UHGV virus genome: UHGV-1783985
DNA length: 38,400 nucleotides
Source of the DNA: a virus
Reading direction: 5' to 3' (one strand)
This document shows, piece by piece, positions 1,576 to 33,308 of this stretch (the stretch's first letter is position 1; every line of letters starts with the position of its first letter). The position numbers and the translations under genes are program-made. Below the pieces are notes generated by a model that did not search any database, was not told the origin of the DNA, and saw nothing but the letters and a program-made list of their open reading frames with translations.

Positions 1576-2181
1576 CTAAGCAGCCTTCTTTGATGGTCTT
1601 TTTTTCCTGATCACATTCGCAGGGTCATACCCTCCCAGACTTTTCATGACGTCCAGAGGGATCTTGCTTATAGAGTGCCCAGCATCCTGACAGAATCCTC
1701 GAAAAACAACGAGCATACTGCCACCGGGGTTGATGTTTACTTCTACCTGACCCAAATTGACGTCAGGCTCGACAAACGCTACGCGGCCACCAGACAGAAT
1801 AATCGTCTCATTCGCACACTCTGTTGCACGCTCATACCACTTTGTATCGAGGGATTGAGGAATTAGCATCACGGTTGTAACTCCGCGAGCCTGCTCACGT
1901 ATAGCCGCATCAATCCAGGGGGAGATTTTGGAGTAGGGTGGATTGAGGAAGGCAATTGTACCTGGCTGCCCCCATTCAGATTTCAAAGCATCGCGCTCAA
2001 CGCCTATGAAATTTGGCAGCTTTGCATTGTCCTTGTTGCAGGCAACGTCAACATCAAATGTCACTCCAAGATAACGTTGAATGGCAGAAAACAGCCAATC
2101 AGGTGTTCTCCAGAGATCACGAAGAGAGTTGTCGCGCTTTCGCTGTTTGATTTTTTCAGCTGCAATCATCTTCTTTCTCAA
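1576..2181 (-). CDS. DNA N6-adenine methyltransferase (phage Dam-like)
   Basis: 201-aa ORF with DLWRTPDWLF near N-terminus and NPPYS catalytic motif, as in phage/bacterial N6-adenine methyltransferases. Confidence 0.75.
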   Translation of the reverse strand: MRKKMIAAEKIKQRKRDNSLRDLWRTPDWLFSAIQRYLGVTFDVDVACNKDNAKLPNFIGVERDALKSEWGQPGTIAFLNPPYSKISPWIDAAIREQARGVTTVMLIPQSLDTKWYERATECANETIILSGGRVAFVEPDVNLGQVEVNINPGGSMLVVFRGFCQDAGHSISKIPLDVMKSLGGYDPANVIRKKRPSKKAA

Positions 2182-2352
2182 TAGGTAGGTGATTACCTAT
2201 TTTTGCATTTGGTTTTATGTATAGCAATCAAATAAAATGCGCCAGAAATGCGAACAAGAAGCTCTCTGGCGCGTTTTTGTGGTGCTGGGTATGTGATTGG
2301 CTTACCCAGCACTATAAAGCTCTCTATGGGCTTTATTTTCAGTAGGGGAACG

Positions 2353-3162
2353 TCATCCAATAGTGTACTCCGCGACAAACTTCTTAACGATCGGTGATTC
2401 TTCGTTCAGTGTTAGATTTCCACCGTCTCTAACAGCAATTCCTGTAGCTGGAAACACAGCCATCATTTGCCCAGCCTGAGTTGACGCCGTGTTAAGCGGA
2501 TACGGTTTTTCTGGATTGCTCATTAAAGCAATCTTAATACTATTACTTGTAGCCTTCTTTTCTGTGAGAAGGTGTCTCATGGAAATTACTGTGTAAACAC
2601 TAATATCTGGACCCGCGCTAAACCAATTAAGAAGGTTTAATATCTTATCCTTTGCTTTGACAGGCGCGTTTTCGTAAGCGTCTAAGAAAATATCTTTTTC
2701 TAAACCTGCTTTATTGAAAAACGAATCATCTTTATCACTTAAAGTAAAACGAGGACCTCTTGCAGCACGAGCTTTTTTATTTGTGTTGCTATCATTTGAC
2801 TGTTGGACTTTTAATCCATCATTAACCTCAACACACTCTTCAACATCAATAATCCCCAATTGTTCTGGCTCGTTTTCAGCAGCTTCAACGCTTTCAGCGT
2901 TAATTACGTTTATAGGTTCATGCGCTAACTCCAACTCATTTAAAGCAGAGCTGAAATCACCGATATTTTCTTCATTGGACAACTCTTCGGCGACATCATC
3001 AGAACTCGTAGCCACACCTTCATCGAGACCAAGAAGAAGATAATCAATGTCATCAGTATTTTCAATCTGTGCAGCTTTTTTTACTGGTTCATCAAGTGAT
3101 CGCAACATTGCAGTCAGCTCGTCCAGATCATCATTTATAATTACATTTTCAGTCGAACTCAT
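2353..3162 (-). CDS. Hypothetical protein with strongly acidic N-terminal half
   Basis: 269-aa ORF; first ~150 residues extremely rich in D/E (e.g. DDLDELTAMLRSLDEP, EELSNEENIGDFSS, AENEPEQLGIIDVEECVEVNDG), C-terminal ~100 residues non-acidic. Confidence 0.6.
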   Translation of the reverse strand: MSSTENVIINDDLDELTAMLRSLDEPVKKAAQIENTDDIDYLLLGLDEGVATSSDDVAEELSNEENIGDFSSALNELELAHEPINVINAESVEAAENEPEQLGIIDVEECVEVNDGLKVQQSNDSNTNKKARAARGPRFTLSDKDDSFFNKAGLEKDIFLDAYENAPVKAKDKILNLLNWFSAGPDISVYTVISMRHLLTEKKATSNSIKIALMSNPEKPYPLNTASTQAGQMMAVFPATGIAVRDGGNLTLNEESPIVKKFVAEYTIG

Positions 3163-3416
3163 GTAAGTCTCCTTTTCTTTCGTTATATTTGCGTTTAGTT
3201 GATTATATTTTGACTAAACCTACTAGGCGGAAAAGTGTTAAATCCAGGCGAGTTAGTCATGAACGGGTTATATTCCTGATGATCATGTGAGTCTGACTGC
3301 TTTACAAATAAGCAAATAAATTTACACATATTATTTTTGTGATCGTCATCACAAAAATAACCTTCAATAAAGGTTATTTATAATATTGTACGTTCATGTT
3401 TTTTTTGGCAAGGAAA

Positions 3417-3518
3417 ATGGAATCATCAAAAAAAGAACAATTTAGCAACTTATTAATAAAAGTTGTTATTGGTATCGCTGTAGTTGAATACATTTATCTT
3501 TTTGTGAGATATTTTTAA
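3417..3518 (+). CDS. Candidate 33-aa hydrophobic peptide
   Basis: ATG at 3417 preceded by AAGGAAA; translation MESSKKEQFSNLLIKVVIGIAVVEYIYLFVRYF; stop immediately followed by the 3521-3560 hairpin. Below the 60-aa ORF-track cutoff. Confidence 0.3.
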   Translation: MESSKKEQFSNLLIKVVIGIAVVEYIYLFVRYF

Positions 3519-3520
3519 TA

Positions 3521-3560
3521 AAAACCCTACTTTAAAGTTAATTTAAAGTAGGGTTTATTC
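3521..3560. terminator. Intrinsic terminator hairpin (bidirectional)
   Basis: Inverted repeat AACCCTACTTTAAA / TTTAAAGTAGGGTT flanked by A-run and T-run, directly downstream of the minus-strand exonuclease gene and the plus-strand small ORF. Confidence 0.6.
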
Positions 3561-4117
3561 TAAGCTATTTCAGAAGGCAACTTAAAAAATCCGTACTTAT
3601 TACGTGCCTTAAAGAAGCATTGCATCATTAAGTTTGTGTCATATAAGGCACTATGTGCTTTGGTATGATCGTATATAAAGCCAAGAGAGAAGGCTAACTC
3701 TTCAAGGCGGGGACGTTTACCGTCTTCTGTGGCCCACAGGGAAAATAGAGTGTCAATCAATGGGATGTCTGGAAGCGAAAAACCGTAACTTTTCAGCTCA
3801 TGCCTAATAAACGGAATATCGAACGCTTCGCCGTTGTGGGCTATCCAAATATCGGAAGAAGAGAGGTACGAAGCGACAGATGAAGCGTGATCGGCTAGTA
3901 ACGGCTCGGCGGCTAAATCTTCAAGACTGATGCCGTGTACCGCTTGCGCTTTCGGATCGATACTGCGACGCGGGTTGAACCGCATTACAAAACTATCAAC
4001 CATTGTCTGTGTCTCAATTTCGTACTTCACCATTGCGATTTCAATAATTTTATGACCAGCAAGGAAATCCAGCCCCGTAGACTCGATATCGATGCCTGCA
4101 ACAATCGTTGTCATCAA
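3560..4117 (-). CDS. DnaQ-like 3'-5' exonuclease (DEDDh family)
   Basis: 185-aa ORF with Exo I GIDIESTGL, Exo II HNGEAFDIPF and Exo III HSALYD motifs. Confidence 0.8.
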   Translation of the reverse strand: MMTTIVAGIDIESTGLDFLAGHKIIEIAMVKYEIETQTMVDSFVMRFNPRRSIDPKAQAVHGISLEDLAAEPLLADHASSVASYLSSSDIWIAHNGEAFDIPFIRHELKSYGFSLPDIPLIDTLFSLWATEDGKRPRLEELAFSLGFIYDHTKAHSALYDTNLMMQCFFKARNKYGFFKLPSEIA

Positions 4118-4123
4118 AACTCC

Positions 4124-4543
4124 TTACAACTTCTTAGCGCCCTTAAGTAGTGCGCTACGTACAAATTGAGCCGCTTTTTTCAAAGTTTCTTCACTGGTTT
4201 CACAGACAATCGGATCTTTCCACTTACCTGATGCTGTGTTGAGAATGTTGATTTGGTTGCTATCCAGACAAACAGAGATATAAAGCACCGTGCCACCAGC
4301 CAGCATCAAATGCATAGGAAACAGAGGCTTTTTACTGCCTTCACTGAACTGAGACATGGCGATGTTAATGGCTTCACCTACTTGTGCGCCAACAAGCCCT
4401 TGCGCAGTTTCGAATATGGCACGAATAGCCAGACGAGCCTCTCGATCGCTCATAAACGACCGAGAATGTTCGTCCGCCACACGAATCAAAGCCTCTGTTG
4501 TTTTCCGATCCAGTTCATCTTCAAGCAACATTTCACTAAACAT
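4124..4543 (-). CDS. Hypothetical protein
   Basis: 139-aa ORF in operon context, same strand as neighbours; no motif recognised. Confidence 0.5.
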   Translation of the reverse strand: MFSEMLLEDELDRKTTEALIRVADEHSRSFMSDREARLAIRAIFETAQGLVGAQVGEAINIAMSQFSEGSKKPLFPMHLMLAGGTVLYISVCLDSNQINILNTASGKWKDPIVCETSEETLKKAAQFVRSALLKGAKKL

Positions 4544-6136: not shown

Positions 6137-7267
6137 TCACACCGCCACTGGAACCTTGATCCACGGTAGAGGGGCATAGCCAAGAATTAGAACCTCGTCC
6201 CATTTGAAATCATCCAACTCTGACCATTCATGAGGGAAAATAACGACCGGATCTGAATGCTCTGGAGCCTGTCGTTTCATTAGCTCACACACACTTTCCA
6301 TGTGGTTGTTGTACAAATGCACGTCAAAGCCAAAATGCACAAAGGCACCGGCCATGTGACCCGTAATCTTCGCGAGAAAATGAGTGAGAATGCCATAACC
6401 AGCAATATTGAATGGCATACCAACAAAAGTGTCTACGCTACGCTGTACGAGGCAGGAGTTGAGGATGCGTTTGGGGATTCCAAGTTCATCCAGTTCAGTT
6501 TCAGTAACACTGCCGACCATCTCCAGATCGTATAGCATCTTGGTGTAGATAGACTCGTAACCGAGGCGACTGTGTTGAAGACCAATGTCAGTTGCCATCG
6601 TTAAACGGGTTTCAAAATCAAGCTCACGACTCCACAAAGAGAAGACAAAGTGGCAAGGTGGCAGTTTCATATCCTCAAGCTCGCCTACGTTCCATGCGTT
6701 AAGCATGATGCGACGATCGGTAGGGTTCGTGCGCAGTGTATCGACAATACGCTGTAGCTGATCGATTTCACGGGACAGCACTACGCGATCTTCACTGATA
6801 CCCAGGTATCCCTCGACTTTGTACCCGCGTTCACGGAACGTATCGATCTTGCTCAGATACTCACTATGGCTCACGATGCGGGTATCTTCCCAGCGACGCC
6901 ACTGCTTGCCGTAAACCGGCCCCAAATCACCATTCTCATCGGCCCATGCGTCCCAAATCTTCACGCCGTTATCCTTGAGAAATTGGATGTTACCCGTGCC
7001 TTTCAGATACCACTCAAGTTCGACAAGTAGTGGCTTAAGATTTACCGCCTTTCCAGAAATAAGCGGCACAGTCCCACCAGTAAGCATGTAGTAAGAGGGA
7101 ACGTAGCAGGTGCTTAAAGTACCAGTGCCTGTGCGATCATCAGCCTGCACGCCGCTTTTAAGCACCGTCTCAATAACTCTTGCATACGATGCGTTTGTTA
7201 CCTGACCGTTCGTATGCTCACGATTCAAAAGGAGTGACACAAAAACCTCACAAAGATAGGTAATCAC
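6137..7267 (-). CDS. thyA: Thymidylate synthase (ThyA family) with two internal insertions
   Basis: DRTGTGT, IWDAWADENGDLGPVYGKQWRRW, LPPCH, SCLVQRSVDTFVGMPFNIAGY motifs. About 38-aa and about 50-aa insertions relative to E. coli ThyA. An in-frame GTG preceded by GAGG (spacer 5) nine codons in may be the true start. Confidence 0.8.
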   Translation of the reverse strand: MITYLCEVFVSLLLNREHTNGQVTNASYARVIETVLKSGVQADDRTGTGTLSTCYVPSYYMLTGGTVPLISGKAVNLKPLLVELEWYLKGTGNIQFLKDNGVKIWDAWADENGDLGPVYGKQWRRWEDTRIVSHSEYLSKIDTFRERGYKVEGYLGISEDRVVLSREIDQLQRIVDTLRTNPTDRRIMLNAWNVGELEDMKLPPCHFVFSLWSRELDFETRLTMATDIGLQHSRLGYESIYTKMLYDLEMVGSVTETELDELGIPKRILNSCLVQRSVDTFVGMPFNIAGYGILTHFLAKITGHMAGAFVHFGFDVHLYNNHMESVCELMKRQAPEHSDPVVIFPHEWSELDDFKWDEVLILGYAPLPWIKVPVAV

Positions 7268-22170: not shown

Positions 22171-24348
22171 TTACCCTTCTACTGACTCCGTGGGGGTATC
22201 TTTTGCTCTCCGGTCGTCGATTGCCTGTAAAGCCGCAATGATTTCAGCTAGTGGCTTCTCCCGATACATCTCGACGATCTGTGATTTGGTGTATTTCTTG
22301 TCACCAATTTCTACGCGCCCGCTGGCGTTCTTTGGCAGGTATCCTTCTTCCAGCATGTACTCGACGAGCGATTCGATAACGTCGAGGCCACGAGTAGGAT
22401 CGAAGTAGAATTTCCAGGTGCATTTGCCATACGGTGGTGCAACTTTGTTTTTGATGCACTCTGCGCCTACGTCCTGACCGATCTTCTCTTTACCATCCTT
22501 CATCACCGATGCACCGAGACGGATGCGCACAGAAGCGTAAAACTTCGGTGAATCGCCACCTGGTGACGTGCAATTGTGAACGATAAATCCATTTGCCGAA
22601 TTTCCAACCATATAGTTATGGTTGTCTTCAACACCAATGTCATAACGTCGTGTTAATGTTCTCCCCGCTCCCTTTTTTACCTTGCTCTCGCGGACATCTT
22701 TGACGACCGTCCAATGTTCATAGAATGAGACTACCGGTTGCATATCATAATTATCGACGAACTTGCCACGATACTCCGAGGGGAGCTTGTACTGCATAGA
22801 ATCAAAGACAAACGATGCAATATTCTCAGCAATTATGGCGCTGGATTCCTGGTCAAAGAGGAGGCCTCCCTTACGCGCGTTAACTTTTGATCTGATGCTG
22901 AATTTGTCGTACAGGATATCGGCCAGGTTTTGGAGATACCCTCTGCCACAGTGTTTTTTAGCCTTACGTTTAAATGAAATGTCGTATCGACCTCTGCTAT
23001 CAAGATGACCGTCATCCATTACCAGTAGAGCGAAGTTTTGCCAGGAGGCAAACTCCGTAAACACTTTTAGCGGATTTCTGACATAATCCTCCAGGTCTTT
23101 AAAATCGTTGTTAACAGGAGAGTCGTGTCTAATTCCGTACTTTCCTGACATTCGACCTAAAAGAACTTTTGTCTCTGTAAATTCGCCAAATAGATTCGAT
23201 AGCTTATCCGCTTTCCACTTTGAGTAAGACGGGTTCGCATTATCCTGAAAAGCAATGCCTGCTGTGGTTCTTTCGCCTCTCATCTTTCTAAAAGCGCAGT
23301 CTCCCACTAAGAAGCCGACAACTTGAGACCTGGTTTCATTAGTTAAAACAGTTGTGCGCTTGGTAAGCAATTCATCGCCTTCAATTATGTCTTTGGCCGT
23401 AGTCCAACCACGACGAGTCAGGATGCGGTGATCCTCTGTAAATGTCGCAGCCATAACCCCGTTTTTGGTATTGTGTCCAAGCGTGCTGATGTGTATCCAT
23501 TCCTCATCATCTGGCTTGCGGCCGTTATCATGCCATTCGTTGATTTTCTTTGGCTCGATAACGCCTGACTCTTCGTTGTACGACCACACATCTTTTTCTA
23601 TTTTGTTCTCTACAATTTCTCGGATAGTTGCGCTTGTGCCATCAACGAAAGGTATTATTGCATCCCCTCTCAAACATCTATCGCCAAACATAATTCCCAG
23701 ATTTGTCCTCATCTGATTGAGGAAAATTAAACAAGCATTGTATTTACGCGCCCACAAAGCCAGAGTAGGAAAGTTCGCACTCGTCGCACGCGCCAGCGCC
23801 GTATTGTCGTTCATGTTTAGCTGATCTTTGTCTTTGGCAGTGCCTTCAGCCATCTTTTCGAACTTCTCGGCTTTGGAGTTCGGAACCATAGACGCAAGTG
23901 AGTCAGCCACGATACAGATAGGTGCTGATTCAGGGATAAGCTCTTCATCACGTACCAATTTAAGTATTGTGCCGATCAACTCTACAGAGTCTTCGAAGGT
24001 ATCAGGCTGCTTGTATACCCACTGACCGTCATCCTCATCTGCGTTCAGGCCATTGGCGACAGCCAGGCCAACATCAAAACTGTTCTCATGATCGAGGAAT
24101 ACCGCCAGACCATCTTGTTTCTGAGCGGATATCATTGCTGCTGTTGCCAAAAAGGTTTTCCCCGCGCTTGGCGGCCCGAATACTTCTACGATACGACCAC
24201 ATGGGAAACCGCCATCGTAACGACCGGAAATAGCTTTGTTTAACGGAGGAAAGCCTGTGTCAATCCAATGAGTTACTTTCTGAATTTCGTCGTTGCTACC
24301 GATTTTCTTTTTCAGAGCAAGTGCCAGTGCGGATTTTCCTTTTGCCAT
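22171..24348 (-). CDS. RecA/UvsX-family recombinase interrupted by an intein
   Basis: 725-aa ORF. N-extein has Walker A GPPSAGKT; junction ...GIMFGDR | CLRGD...FIVHN | CTSPGGDSPKFYASVR. Spliced extein (about 357 aa) restores the RecA motif MFG-x6-GG-x3-KFYASVR. Confidence 0.8.
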   Translation of the reverse strand: MAKGKSALALALKKKIGSNDEIQKVTHWIDTGFPPLNKAISGRYDGGFPCGRIVEVFGPPSAGKTFLATAAMISAQKQDGLAVFLDHENSFDVGLAVANGLNADEDDGQWVYKQPDTFEDSVELIGTILKLVRDEELIPESAPICIVADSLASMVPNSKAEKFEKMAEGTAKDKDQLNMNDNTALARATSANFPTLALWARKYNACLIFLNQMRTNLGIMFGDRCLRGDAIIPFVDGTSATIREIVENKIEKDVWSYNEESGVIEPKKINEWHDNGRKPDDEEWIHISTLGHNTKNGVMAATFTEDHRILTRRGWTTAKDIIEGDELLTKRTTVLTNETRSQVVGFLVGDCAFRKMRGERTTAGIAFQDNANPSYSKWKADKLSNLFGEFTETKVLLGRMSGKYGIRHDSPVNNDFKDLEDYVRNPLKVFTEFASWQNFALLVMDDGHLDSRGRYDISFKRKAKKHCGRGYLQNLADILYDKFSIRSKVNARKGGLLFDQESSAIIAENIASFVFDSMQYKLPSEYRGKFVDNYDMQPVVSFYEHWTVVKDVRESKVKKGAGRTLTRRYDIGVEDNHNYMVGNSANGFIVHNCTSPGGDSPKFYASVRIRLGASVMKDGKEKIGQDVGAECIKNKVAPPYGKCTWKFYFDPTRGLDVIESLVEYMLEEGYLPKNASGRVEIGDKKYTKSQIVEMYREKPLAEIIAALQAIDDRRAKDTPTESVEG
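22573..23676 (-). mobile_element. Intein with LAGLIDADG homing-endonuclease domain inside the recombinase gene
   Basis: Residues 225-592: starts with Cys (CLRGDAIIPFVDG), ends HN followed by Cys+1; internal LAGLIDADG-like motifs VGFLVGDCAF and LLVMDDGHLD. Codon boundaries checked against the sequence. Confidence 0.75.
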
Positions 24349-31025: not shown

Positions 31026-33308
31026 TTAACCAAATATTTTTTGAACAACTTCACGTGCCGCTTGCGCAGAAGCTGAAGGGAGTTTGTTAATGAAAGAACG
31101 CTCAATACCTGTCACAAAATCGCCTCGCATCATTCCAATCTTGGCCGACAACAAAAGCTCACGAGGCCCAATTGGTTGGCTAATATTGTGTTCTTCGTAT
31201 CCATCGCGAACGATACCGGCAAACTTAACCATCTTTTCAGCGTATTCATCCACAATGCCGGCATTTATCAACATGTTGATCTCTGCCTCTTTGCTCATGT
31301 ATTTCACATTCGAAACGATGCCAAAACGCGAAAAGTTCGCGGCGTTCTGGATGTTTGTACCCTGGTACAAGCCGGTTTCATCACCAGATCCGTTCGTGTT
31401 GCCAGTGCCAATGAAAGCAAACCGTTCATGCGGAGTAATGCGACGCCATTCTGGAGTCGCCTCTTTGATGACCAACGCTTCACCTTCCAGCACTGGCTGA
31501 TACACGCCAAGAATTTGTGGAAACGCAAAGTCGTATTCATCCGCGAGGTAAACCCAGCCATGCTTCATTGCGAGCGCAAGCAAGCCAGGTTCGAAATACG
31601 TAGAGCCATCACGCGCCAGAATTTGCCCCGTAACATGTGCCTCTTCCATTGATGCTGTATGTTGGGCACGGATCAACGGGCGATTGAGCAAAGCACATAG
31701 CTGTGTAGGCAGAGTTGTATTGTGCGTAACGATAAACTCTTCGGTGATGTACAGTTCATCATCTGCGCTTACTTTTATACATATGCACTCAGCCTCGCCA
31801 TCTTCCTCGATAGAGGTGATAAATCTGCTTGGCGGATTCTTGGTAGATGGAGACCAGTTTTTGGATTTCCGATCAGCGGAAAATGGGTTAATGAACATTT
31901 TCACGTTAATATCAGCATAGTAACCGCTCTTATGACGTTCTGCGGCTCCATCTTTTACTATCGCAGTTCCGCCTAAAGACTGAACAAGAAACTTCACACA
32001 TGCAGCCAGCTTTTCAGACGTGGTGGAGAAGTTTGTACGGTTTTGTCTCACGCTTCCGTCTGTATCCATCAGTCCTCGGAGTAAAGCGAGGCGATTTTCA
32101 GTGGAGTCGAAGAGATATTCATCTGGGATAAATTTTTCCCCTGATTGCACATTCAAACCCAGCCGTTTAATCTCATCCATCATTCTGTTTTGACGGAACT
32201 TTTTGCAGTCGATGATATTAAATTGCCGCCCGTTTTCACTCGTGTTTCTGAGCTTGCTGGTGCGCATACCATCAGGAAGAAGAGAATCGATTCTTCTCTT
32301 GATATCAATGTCTTCCGTACCCACGCTCATTGCTGGCGTGTTCCCTAATAAGTAACCGTCTCCAATTAACGCACCTAATAAATAGGGATGGATGAGATGT
32401 TCCTGCGAGGGCCACTCGACAGCTTTAGTTAAAGGAACTTTGAACTTGCACTGACCACCAGAATTTCTGATTCCCAAGTCAATCATTTCTTTGGTCGTTC
32501 TGATTTTTGCATGTTGCTTGTAGCTCTTGCCGTTTTTGGTCTTGTATTCATGTGTAGGTAGGATATGCCAAAGATGTTCGCCGCAAGCTCGTGTGCTAGA
32601 ACCATCTCTAAAGGTGATGCGATAAATTGGCTTAATCCCTTGTGGGAAGATGCCTGTTATCTTTGTGGACTTTCCGTTAGATCCGAATACCTCATCACCA
32701 ACTTTCAAATCACCAAAGCGCACCATCCCTCTTGGTGTTGGGATTAGCGTATCTACTGGCTGGGCCTTGCCTGTTCCTGCATGACCCCACAAATAGCCAG
32801 GTATGCCAAGTTCAAGCATCATGAAAATATCTTTGATCAGTTCGAAGTCGCCATATACGTAGCCCTTCTTCACTTCGGGAACGAACTCTGGAAACGGCGT
32901 ATTGACGTTGACGCTAACCATGAGCGGCGTCCCACGTTTTGTTCCGAGTTCTTCCACCGTTACGTTTAGCAGTTCGTGAGCTGCGACCAGATCTGTCTTG
33001 TACTCAACTGTGCCTGTGTAGCCTGGGCTACTGGTCACGCCAGAAGATTTGGCCAGTTCGCTTTTTTGCTCGGCACGTTTAGCTTGAATTGCATCAAGTG
33101 CCTTTTTCGATAGCGTTGGCTCATCTGGAAACTGCGTTGTGTACATTTTCAGTACGGTGTCAGGGTCGGAATCTTTTACTGACTCAGGAATGCCCTCACA
33201 ATTACCATTGGCTACATGGGACTTAAAATAGTGAAATGATTTGCCGCACCACTTGCAAACAAGGTAATCAGAAGGATTTTTTTCATTTTGCAGTGCAGTA
33301 GTCGTCAT
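31026..33308 (-). CDS. CobS/MoxR-like AAA+ ATPase interrupted by an intein in the P-loop
   Basis: 760-aa ORF; junction ...GYLWGHAGTGK | AQPVD...IVTHN | TTLPTQLCALL. Spliced product (about 411 aa) restores Walker A GHAGTGKTTL; N-terminal Cys-rich segment CKWCGK...H...C. Confidence 0.7.
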   Translation of the reverse strand: MTTTALQNEKNPSDYLVCKWCGKSFHYFKSHVANGNCEGIPESVKDSDPDTVLKMYTTQFPDEPTLSKKALDAIQAKRAEQKSELAKSSGVTSSPGYTGTVEYKTDLVAAHELLNVTVEELGTKRGTPLMVSVNVNTPFPEFVPEVKKGYVYGDFELIKDIFMMLELGIPGYLWGHAGTGKAQPVDTLIPTPRGMVRFGDLKVGDEVFGSNGKSTKITGIFPQGIKPIYRITFRDGSSTRACGEHLWHILPTHEYKTKNGKSYKQHAKIRTTKEMIDLGIRNSGGQCKFKVPLTKAVEWPSQEHLIHPYLLGALIGDGYLLGNTPAMSVGTEDIDIKRRIDSLLPDGMRTSKLRNTSENGRQFNIIDCKKFRQNRMMDEIKRLGLNVQSGEKFIPDEYLFDSTENRLALLRGLMDTDGSVRQNRTNFSTTSEKLAACVKFLVQSLGGTAIVKDGAAERHKSGYYADINVKMFINPFSADRKSKNWSPSTKNPPSRFITSIEEDGEAECICIKVSADDELYITEEFIVTHNTTLPTQLCALLNRPLIRAQHTASMEEAHVTGQILARDGSTYFEPGLLALAMKHGWVYLADEYDFAFPQILGVYQPVLEGEALVIKEATPEWRRITPHERFAFIGTGNTNGSGDETGLYQGTNIQNAANFSRFGIVSNVKYMSKEAEINMLINAGIVDEYAEKMVKFAGIVRDGYEEHNISQPIGPRELLLSAKIGMMRGDFVTGIERSFINKLPSASAQAAREVVQKIFG
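31719..32765 (-). mobile_element. Intein (Ala-1, candidate class 3) with LAGLIDADG homing-endonuclease domain inside the AAA+ ATPase gene
   Basis: Residues 182-530: begins with Ala, ends THN with Thr+1; Trp in block-B-like ACGEHLWHIL, Cys in block-F-like ECICIKV, Thr in terminal VTHN (WCT arrangement); LAGLIDADG motifs LLGALIGDGYL and LLRGLMDTDGSV. Codon boundaries checked. Confidence 0.6.

Follow-up and report, generated by a model that had tools for sequence, protein, structure and literature searches.

An insert with intein features in a phage-plasmid recA gene

The virus genome UHGV-1783985 was analysed as one stretch of 38,400 nucleotides (nt), termed here the window, whose minus strand carries a RecA-family open reading frame (ORF) of 725 amino acids (aa). 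Residues 225-592 of this ORF form a 368-aa segment that begins with CLRGD, ends with FIVHN and is followed by a cysteine at position +1 (Table 1). Its context is ...NQMRTNLGIMFGDR / intein / CTSPGGDSPKFYASVR or, with a longer flank on the N-terminal side, ...LNQMRTNLGIMFGDR before and CTSPGGDSPKFYASVR... after the segment. An original prediction, made from the DNA letters alone, had described an intein with a LAGLIDADG endonuclease inside a RecA/UvsX-like recombinase, starting with Cys and ending with HN-Cys, and its coordinates proved right to the base. It had also held that excision gives a continuous RecA motif. Indeed, the 357-aa product of the joined exteins regains the MFG...GG...KFYASVR region and is matched by the Pfam RecA profile in one stretch (E 1e-38), whereas the match to the unspliced precursor is split in two (E 4.3e-33). 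A single RecA match regained by excision is far from anything that chance would give. The frame stays open over 2.2 kb, with neither frameshift nor stop codon.

The insert alone was matched by the Pfam families Intein_splicing (1e-10; 42.1 bits, cut-off 35.8), LAGLIDADG_2 (PF03161; 3.7e-7; 30.7 bits, cut-off 25) and PT-HINT, and by the NCBIfam profiles intein_Cterm (TIGR01443; 32.4 bits, cut-off 15.6) and intein_Nterm (TIGR01445; 25.6 bits, cut-off 24.5). Careful alignment with its relatives brought out the intein blocks A, B, F and G, with Cys1, T80, H83, D346, H353, H367 and N368 invariant, and both LAGLIDADG motifs, VVGFLVGD126CAF and FALLVMD221D222GHL, retain acidic residues that are conserved among the relatives. 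The Cys1 nucleophile, the TxxH of block B, the terminal His-Asn followed by Cys+1 and the HINT fold are those of class-1 inteins. An AlphaFold2 model of the intein, built from 17 sequences, reached a mean pLDDT of 88 and a pTM of 0.76. When it was compared with the PDB by Foldseek, the central domain matched I-SceI best (1r7m; E 1.6e-8, TM score on target 0.63) and also I-WcaI, the whole model matched PI-TkoII, and the two ends matched Mtu RecA, Ssp DnaB, Npu DnaE and other splicing domains with probability 1.00. By sequence, no close relative was found among solved structures, the best being DnaE and Mtu RecA mini-inteins (E about 0.002-0.009). In agreement with the original prediction, the profiles, the invariant residues and the model thus argue for a class-1 intein whose LAGLIDADG endonuclease is monomeric and of the double-motif type, predicted both to splice and to cleave.

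From established intein and LAGLIDADG biochemistry we infer both splicing and an active endonuclease. Once the 725-aa precursor is translated, Cys1 would undergo an N-S acyl shift, attack by Cys+1 (trans-thioesterification) would give a branched intermediate, and cyclisation of Asn368, assisted by His367, would release the intein. An S-N shift would then leave a 357-aa RecA with the loop ...MFGDR-CTSPGG... and the intein would be set free as a 42-kDa endonuclease.

HMMER alignment of the spliced protein with E. coli RecA placed nqmrtnlgimfgdr-ctspggdspkfyasvr opposite nqirmkigvmfgnp-etttggnalkfyasvr. The intein therefore lies inside loop L2 (MFGDR/C), between the equivalents of P206 and E207 in E. 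coli RecA numbering. The host protein also carries the Walker A motif GPPSAGKT, and its NQxRxxxGxMFG...GG..KFYASVR segment aligns with that of E. coli RecA. Among PDB entries it is much closer to RecA chains (about 1e-31) than to UvsX (8e-9 for 9gbg and 4.6e-5 for T4 UvsX, 3io5), which rules out a T4-type UvsX and refines the earlier RecA/UvsX-like label towards bacterial RecA. Because it falls below the cut-off of the bacterial RecA equivalog TIGR02012 (123.6 bits against 325.3) and its best PHROG with an assigned function is phrog_97, 'UvsX-like recombinase' (4.5e-88), the host protein is a diverged phage-type RecA. Loop L2 of RecA contacts DNA and is an intein insertion site, for which M. 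leprae recA is named, and a phage recA group I intron aims at the same region (Taylor et al. 2011, PMC3239194).

A stretch of 24.4 kb is 97-98% identical to non-mobilizable E. coli plasmids of ~110 kb, and the recA gene also matches records of the Escherichia phages CMS-2020a, PhiR41_1 and Cyrano and of Klebsiella phages such as ST13-OXA48phi12.3. We take the host genome to belong to the SSU5-like phage-plasmids (~110 kb). We give a probability of about 0.88 to the reading that loop L2 of the recombinase of such an E. coli phage-plasmid is interrupted by a canonical class-1 intein, in which a double-motif LAGLIDADG endonuclease of I-SceI-like type is embedded.

Table 1. Parts of the recA locus, with positions in the window and the basis of each assignment (A1 and A2, alignments).
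Feature	Position	Strand	Basis
recA precursor ORF, 725 aa + stop	22171..24348	-	ORF list, Pfam RecA
N-extein, aa 1-224, ending ...GIMFGDR	23677..24348	-	aligns to E. coli RecA up to P206
Walker A GPPSAGKT, in N-extein	24154-24177	-	sequence
Putative donor-derived co-conversion tract, final ~115 nt of N-extein	23677..23791	-	divergence from intein-less alleles
Predicted intein, 368 aa, Cys1 to His367-Asn368	22573..23676	-	profiles, alignments, model
N-terminal splicing (HINT) half, intein aa 1-108, with block A Cys1	23353..23676	-	TIGR01445 aa 1-54, Foldseek
Block B, T80-E-D-H83	23428-23439	-	T80 and H83 invariant in A1 and A2
Predicted LAGLIDADG endonuclease domain, intein aa ~109-310 (approximate bounds)	22747..23352	-	LAGLIDADG_2 aa 118-271, Foldseek
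LAGLIDADG motif 1, VVGFLVGDCAF, acidic D126	23290..23322	-	D126 invariant in A2, nearly so in A1
LAGLIDADG motif 2, FALLVMDDGHL, D221 and D222	23002..23034	-	M220, D221, D222 and G223 invariant in A2
C-terminal splicing half, intein aa 311-368	22573..22746	-	TIGR01443 aa 345-368
Block F, YDIGVEDNHNY (D346), and block G, GFIVHN, in C-terminal splicing half	within 22573..22746	-	D346, H353, H367 and N368 invariant
C-extein, 133 aa + stop, opening CTSPGGDSPKFYASVR...	22171..22572	-	aligns to E. coli RecA from E207 on
+1 nucleophile Cys, first C-extein residue	22570-22572	-	sequence

A diverged patch beside the intein

By megablast, the whole gene was compared with plasmids, 5,426 complete E. coli genomes and phages, and found matches in 551 plasmids, 243 of the E. 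coli genomes and 7 phages. In none of these was the L2 intein present, the matches covering at most 49% of the query and consisting of the exteins only (95-97% identity for intein-less alleles). The majority of matching records carry a 1074-nt intein-less gene with a 357-aa product (for example NZ_AP017612.1, 97.3% identity), and inspection of these intein-free recombinases, on which the original prediction had staked its refutation, showed that the 357-aa allele runs on across the insertion point in hundreds of plasmids. The segment is thus an in-frame insert in a conserved host protein whose intein-less alleles are continuous across the site. A minority allele of 2340 nt (779 aa, WP_001051807-like; phrog_9666) carries a different intein of 422 aa in the Walker A motif (SAGK/CVTADT...ISHN/TFLAT; for example NZ_AP027904.1, 4284-6623). 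RefSeq gives it the name 'LAGLIDADG family homing endonuclease', and 1496 sequences belong to its cluster, P0002; in the window, no intein occupies the Walker A motif. As a separate observation, the E. coli proteins P0005, P0006 and P0016 (879-1075 aa) contain RecA and DnaE Pfam domains together, match 18-22% of the query at 92-95% identity, are annotated 'PHP domain-containing protein' or 'DNA polymerase III subunit alpha', and are possibly recA-dnaE deletion fusions occurring in some phage-plasmids.

Between the spliced coding sequence and the allele of NZ_AP017612, which lacks the intein, there were 36 nucleotide differences, of which 30 fell within 118 nt, made up of the final ~115 nt of the N-extein and the +1 codon, a divergence of 25.4% as against 0.63% elsewhere in the gene (binomial P 1.7e-23), and a single difference was found in the 130 nt downstream of this tract. 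At the protein level, the native loop stretch is replaced by ...ACLIFLNQMRTNLGIMFGDR before the intein and CTSPGG after it. An 84-nt query from the tract (23677-23760), searched against 784 related plasmid genes, gave identities of 60-80%, the best match being 79%, in Salmonella, and the best in E. coli 75%. The presence of a sharply bounded foreign patch beside the intein shows arrival by recombination from a diverged recA donor, with which the lower GC content of the intein (44.0% versus 48.7% in the exteins) agrees. We interpret the 118-nt patch as a probable co-conversion tract, in which intein and donor flank would have been copied in together at break repair; the co-conversion is strongly one-sided. 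The pattern shows that the transfer is recent and that the donor recA is one absent from the databases searched. Neither the megablast comparison of the gene described above nor blastn with the tract revealed a donor, the tract never exceeding 79% identity. The same was true of word-indexed searches with the precursor and the intein, an exhaustive HMMER search of 1.84 billion cluster representatives and pattern scans of GTDB and IMG/VR, in which no intein exceeded 45% identity.

Homing would proceed by cleavage of intein-less recA alleles near the insertion point, followed by repair from an intein-bearing copy, with the intein and flanking sequence copied in. The locus constitutes an unusually clean natural record of intein transfer: in a background more than 99% identical to known alleles, a 118-nt stretch of 25% divergence stops with the +1 codon, which fixes both the direction of co-conversion and its extent. 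The intein-plus allele described here and the intein-minus alleles of hundreds of plasmids also form a pair suited to homing tests across diverged targets.

Several observations weigh against this interpretation. The intein is a singleton: the exact 725-aa protein (P0001) is a one-member cluster found on two contigs, one of them from an ENA metagenome assembly (ERZ1749178 NODE_140, 49,330 bp, coverage 3.6), and an element that homes actively should turn up more often in a set of over 550 sequenced relatives. In addition, of the 9 bases around the insertion point, 7 differ between the native site of E. coli phage-plasmids and the spliced junction, so the local alleles may be poor targets for the endonuclease, and the junction itself (-1 Arg / +1 Cys / +2 Thr) is hybrid, with donor extein on one side and recipient extein on the other. 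The single sighting could be explained by such mismatched local alleles or by a very recent arrival.

The singleton status and the mismatched native site, together with the remoteness of a donor lineage whose closest known intein is only 45% identical, are what one would see if the intein spliced while its endonuclease was inactive or unable to cut the recA alleles of this group, the transfer having been a one-off, dead-end event of ordinary recombination with a co-resident diverged element and not of homing driven by the endonuclease. A splicing-competent but immobile intein is a real possibility and is compatible with our preferred reading; we nevertheless regard it as somewhat doubtful, since the two LAGLIDADG motifs are undamaged and conserved, acidic residues included, the high-confidence model of the endonuclease domain has I-SceI as its match, the ORF is undisturbed, and the foreign tract stops exactly at the insertion point, as double-strand-break repair predicts.

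The low coverage of the metagenome contig and the juxtaposition of a 25% diverged tract with a gene otherwise more than 99% identical to known alleles also raise the question of an assembly artefact, in which the intein and diverged flank of another co-occurring element were stitched into the contig. Such an artefact would require two switches, each at an exact k-mer match and one of them directly behind the +1 codon, a point at which identity over a whole k-mer is unlikely for a donor with 25% divergence, and it would have had to yield a perfect in-frame precursor. Given moreover that the exact 725-aa protein occurs on two contigs and that another rare intein, unrelated to this one, is present on the same contig at a distance of 8 kb, which better fits a real intein-acquiring genome, we consider this explanation extremely improbable.

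It is to be noted that the recA gene of such plasmids can be disrupted in nature: in E. albertii plasmids of ~62 kb (H20-H25), the match to recA falls into 4 separate parts across ~3.5 kb, and an IS911-family transposase is annotated beneath it. With IS911 interrupting recA in several of these plasmids, one may ask if the insert in the window is a non-splicing HINT/endonuclease sequence that inactivates recA, reducing it to a pseudogene that the phage-plasmid can do without. This is very unlikely, in view of the residues for the four splicing steps, all of which are present and invariant across the family, of the frame kept open over the whole precursor, and of exteins that show no excess of changes outside the tract (0.63% over 956 nt).

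Insertion positions within the L2 intein family

The exhaustive HMMER search retrieved 1296 relatives of the intein at E<=1e-3 and 115 at E<=1e-30, the closest being 45% identical. In the other sets the closest intein reached 41% (word-indexed, 5.8 billion clusters), 44% (IMG/VR) and 43% (GTDB genomes). Nearly all relatives reside in RecA/UvsX-like proteins of ~700 aa, and they align over their full length, endonuclease domain included. They occur in ~110-kb plasmids of Acinetobacter baumannii (138 records, 37% identity), in the phages Erwinia phage pEa_SNUABM_17 and Yersinia phage fHe-Yen9-02, in many viral contigs, and in chromosomal recA genes of Acidimicrobiia, Solirubrobacterales, Gaiellaceae, Chloroflexota and Mycobacterium. 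The loci of Mycobacterium barrassiae and of two Mycobacterium sp. display the junction VMFG/C[FM]NY...VHN/SPETTTGG, which presumably corresponds to that of the M. leprae RecA intein.

By aligning each spliced junction to the E. coli RecA segment, we assigned 94 inteins to position 204/205 (the Mycobacterium-type site), 23 to 207/208 (Acinetobacter plasmids and the two closest relatives), 7 to 201/202, 4 to 206/207 (the window, P0068, P0150 and P0159), 4 to 208/209 and one to 205/206; four further relatives lie in host proteins other than RecA. The position of the window is thus rare in the L2 family, of which at least six neighbouring positions are occupied within ~10 residues. In the cases inspected, the spacing from MFG to GG is constant at 6 residues, and the differences in position were therefore taken to be true shifts. 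On a tree of 135 inteins the position changes about 17 times, a rough count obtained by neighbour-joining only, as compared with a mean of 41 and a minimum of 37 when labels were shuffled. This indicates that the insertion position was probably conserved within clades and changed repeatedly. The intein of the window clusters with inteins inserted at 207 or 201 and joined another 206 one in none of 40 bootstraps (computed with capped distances), which suggests that its 206/207 Cys+1 arrangement may have arisen independently of the three other members at that position.

We tentatively consider, without favouring it, that a fresh cross-lineage invasion placed an L2-family intein at a new codon position. 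As a matter of speculation, the position could have originated from slipped resolution at the tandem ACG-ACG (Thr-Thr) of the recipient, followed by loss of one upstream codon. If such an invasion did occur, intein-endonuclease pairs could retarget by single-codon steps within a DNA-binding loop, a process of which no description was found, and the hybrid junction, with the N-flank of the donor and the C-flank of the recipient, would represent a natural intermediate of a position shift. The diversity of positions in the L2 family could be relevant to how homing endonucleases change targets.

Two side observations concern the family. The UvsX-like recombinase of Erwinia phage pEa_SNUABM_17 (1191 aa) apparently carries two inteins, the first at L2 and homologous to that of the window (MFG/C...HN/SPEYEPGG), the second 11 residues further on (ALKFY/CFDRDT...VSHN/SDVRVRL). 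Furthermore, close homologues of the L2 intein were found outside RecA in P0030, an RNA-ligase-like protein, and in P0170 and P0171, the latter two having the junctions .../C...HN/CDGT(D/H)GTPDLR.

Genome context and comparison with known systems

The genes around recA encode a Rep3-type initiator, an SbcC-like ATPase, a metallophosphoesterase, an SPFH protein, a 5'-3' exonuclease, a gp32-like single-stranded DNA-binding protein and DnaE, and further neighbours encode CobS-like and CobT-like proteins, ribonucleotide reductase subunits, ThyA, dihydrofolate reductase, Dam and an integrase. A second intein of 349 aa (31719..32765, minus strand), with a LAGLIDADG_3/Hom_end domain, interrupts the Walker A motif of the CobS-like AAA ATPase (GHAGTGK/AQPVD...FIVTHN/TTLPTQ) within ORF 31026-33308. 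This intein opens with Ala rather than Cys or Ser. As judged by eye, block B carries a Trp two residues past its His (GEHLW), block F contains a Cys (ECICIKV) and the terminal His-Asn is preceded by a Thr, which we take to be the residue pattern of class-3 inteins. It was found in none of 194 related plasmids, whose alleles are all empty and 1236 nt long. Its relatives, the best of them 46% identical, occupy P-loops in PhoH, AAA_24, RecA and helicase proteins. A scan of the other large ORFs of the window detected no further inteins and no free-standing homing endonuclease genes. The original prediction had seen in this genome a hotspot for homing elements. This stands in so far as the window holds two inteins, both absent from sequenced relatives, and a third intein occupies the recA P-loop of those relatives, but it does not extend to free-standing homing endonuclease genes among the other large ORFs. 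In SSU5-like phage-plasmids, which clinical E. coli, Klebsiella and Salmonella commonly carry, inteins recur in genes of recombination and replication, with the recA P-loop, recA L2 and the CobS-like P-loop as their targets; a literature search found no paper on inteins in this group.

Two further regions of the window may be mentioned. In the thymidylate-synthase ORF (6137-7267, minus strand, 376 aa), 350 residues align to a Pfam profile of 266 positions, ~85 extra residues forming internal insertions of less than intein length, and the true start may lie downstream of the listed GTG. The region 2001-4200 has the lowest GC content of the window (0.37-0.41 versus about 0.46) and holds an RNase T-like exonuclease ORF (3560-4117) and a 269-aa ORF without Pfam match (2353-3162).

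An intein in RecA L2 is of a kind known since the M. leprae recA intein, of which the copy in the window is a divergent new member. The alignment with RecA/UvsX and known RecA inteins that the original prediction had proposed as a check was carried out, and returned both the L2 location and homology to the Mycobacterium recA inteins. The M. leprae-type RecA intein, known from mycobacterial and other actinobacterial recA, interrupts, like that of the window, loop L2 of a RecA-family host and combines class-1 HINT and LAGLIDADG endonuclease domains in about 350-365 aa, and the inteins of Mycobacterium barrassiae and Mycobacterium sp. recA are homologous over their full length (27% identity, E 2e-24 to 6e-22). 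They differ in host, chromosomal recA versus phage-plasmid recA, in the +1 residue, Ser versus Cys, and in site: the M. leprae type is inserted at 204/205 (VMFG/C...HN/SPETTTGG), presumably 'RecA-b' in InBase naming, whereas the intein of the window is two codons downstream at 206/207 (MFGDR/C). It was on this last ground that a same-site allele of the M. leprae-type intein was rejected.

The closest relatives found are RecA inteins of Acinetobacter baumannii plasmids (for example NC_020524, NC_023031 and p130D1) and of uncultured viral contigs (P0031 / IMGVR_UViG_3300025693_000003, and P0007), 37-45% identical over 368 aa. They share Cys1, Cys+1, the domain layout and a plasmid or phage recA located after a 5'-3' exonuclease gene, but are inserted one codon downstream, at 207/208 (MFGDPT/C-TPGG), and the Acinetobacter inteins are widespread (138 plasmids) whereas the copy in the window is a singleton. 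The P-loop intein of the same recA is likewise a LAGLIDADG intein, in a host gene with 95-97% extein identity; it differs by its length (422 versus 368 aa), its endonuclease family (LAGLIDADG_3 versus LAGLIDADG_2), its site (Walker A versus L2) and its common occurrence.

The M. tuberculosis RecA intein (PI-MtuI) has a splicing domain that superposes on the model (Foldseek E about 1e-6), but its sequence likeness is marginal and limited to that domain (E 0.004), and it was rejected as a close relative; its site is presumably about 45 residues further downstream, near KVVKNK. The NCBIfam profile NF007072, 'intein-containing recombinase RecA', gives 81 bits against a cut-off of 1024. Finally, I-SceI is the best structural match to the endonuclease domain and shares the Pfam family LAGLIDADG_2 with it at 18-19% identity, and the motifs GFLVGDC and LVMDDG resemble what we take to be the two motifs of I-SceI. 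The latter is a free-standing protein encoded by a group I intron, whereas the domain in the window is nested in an intein.

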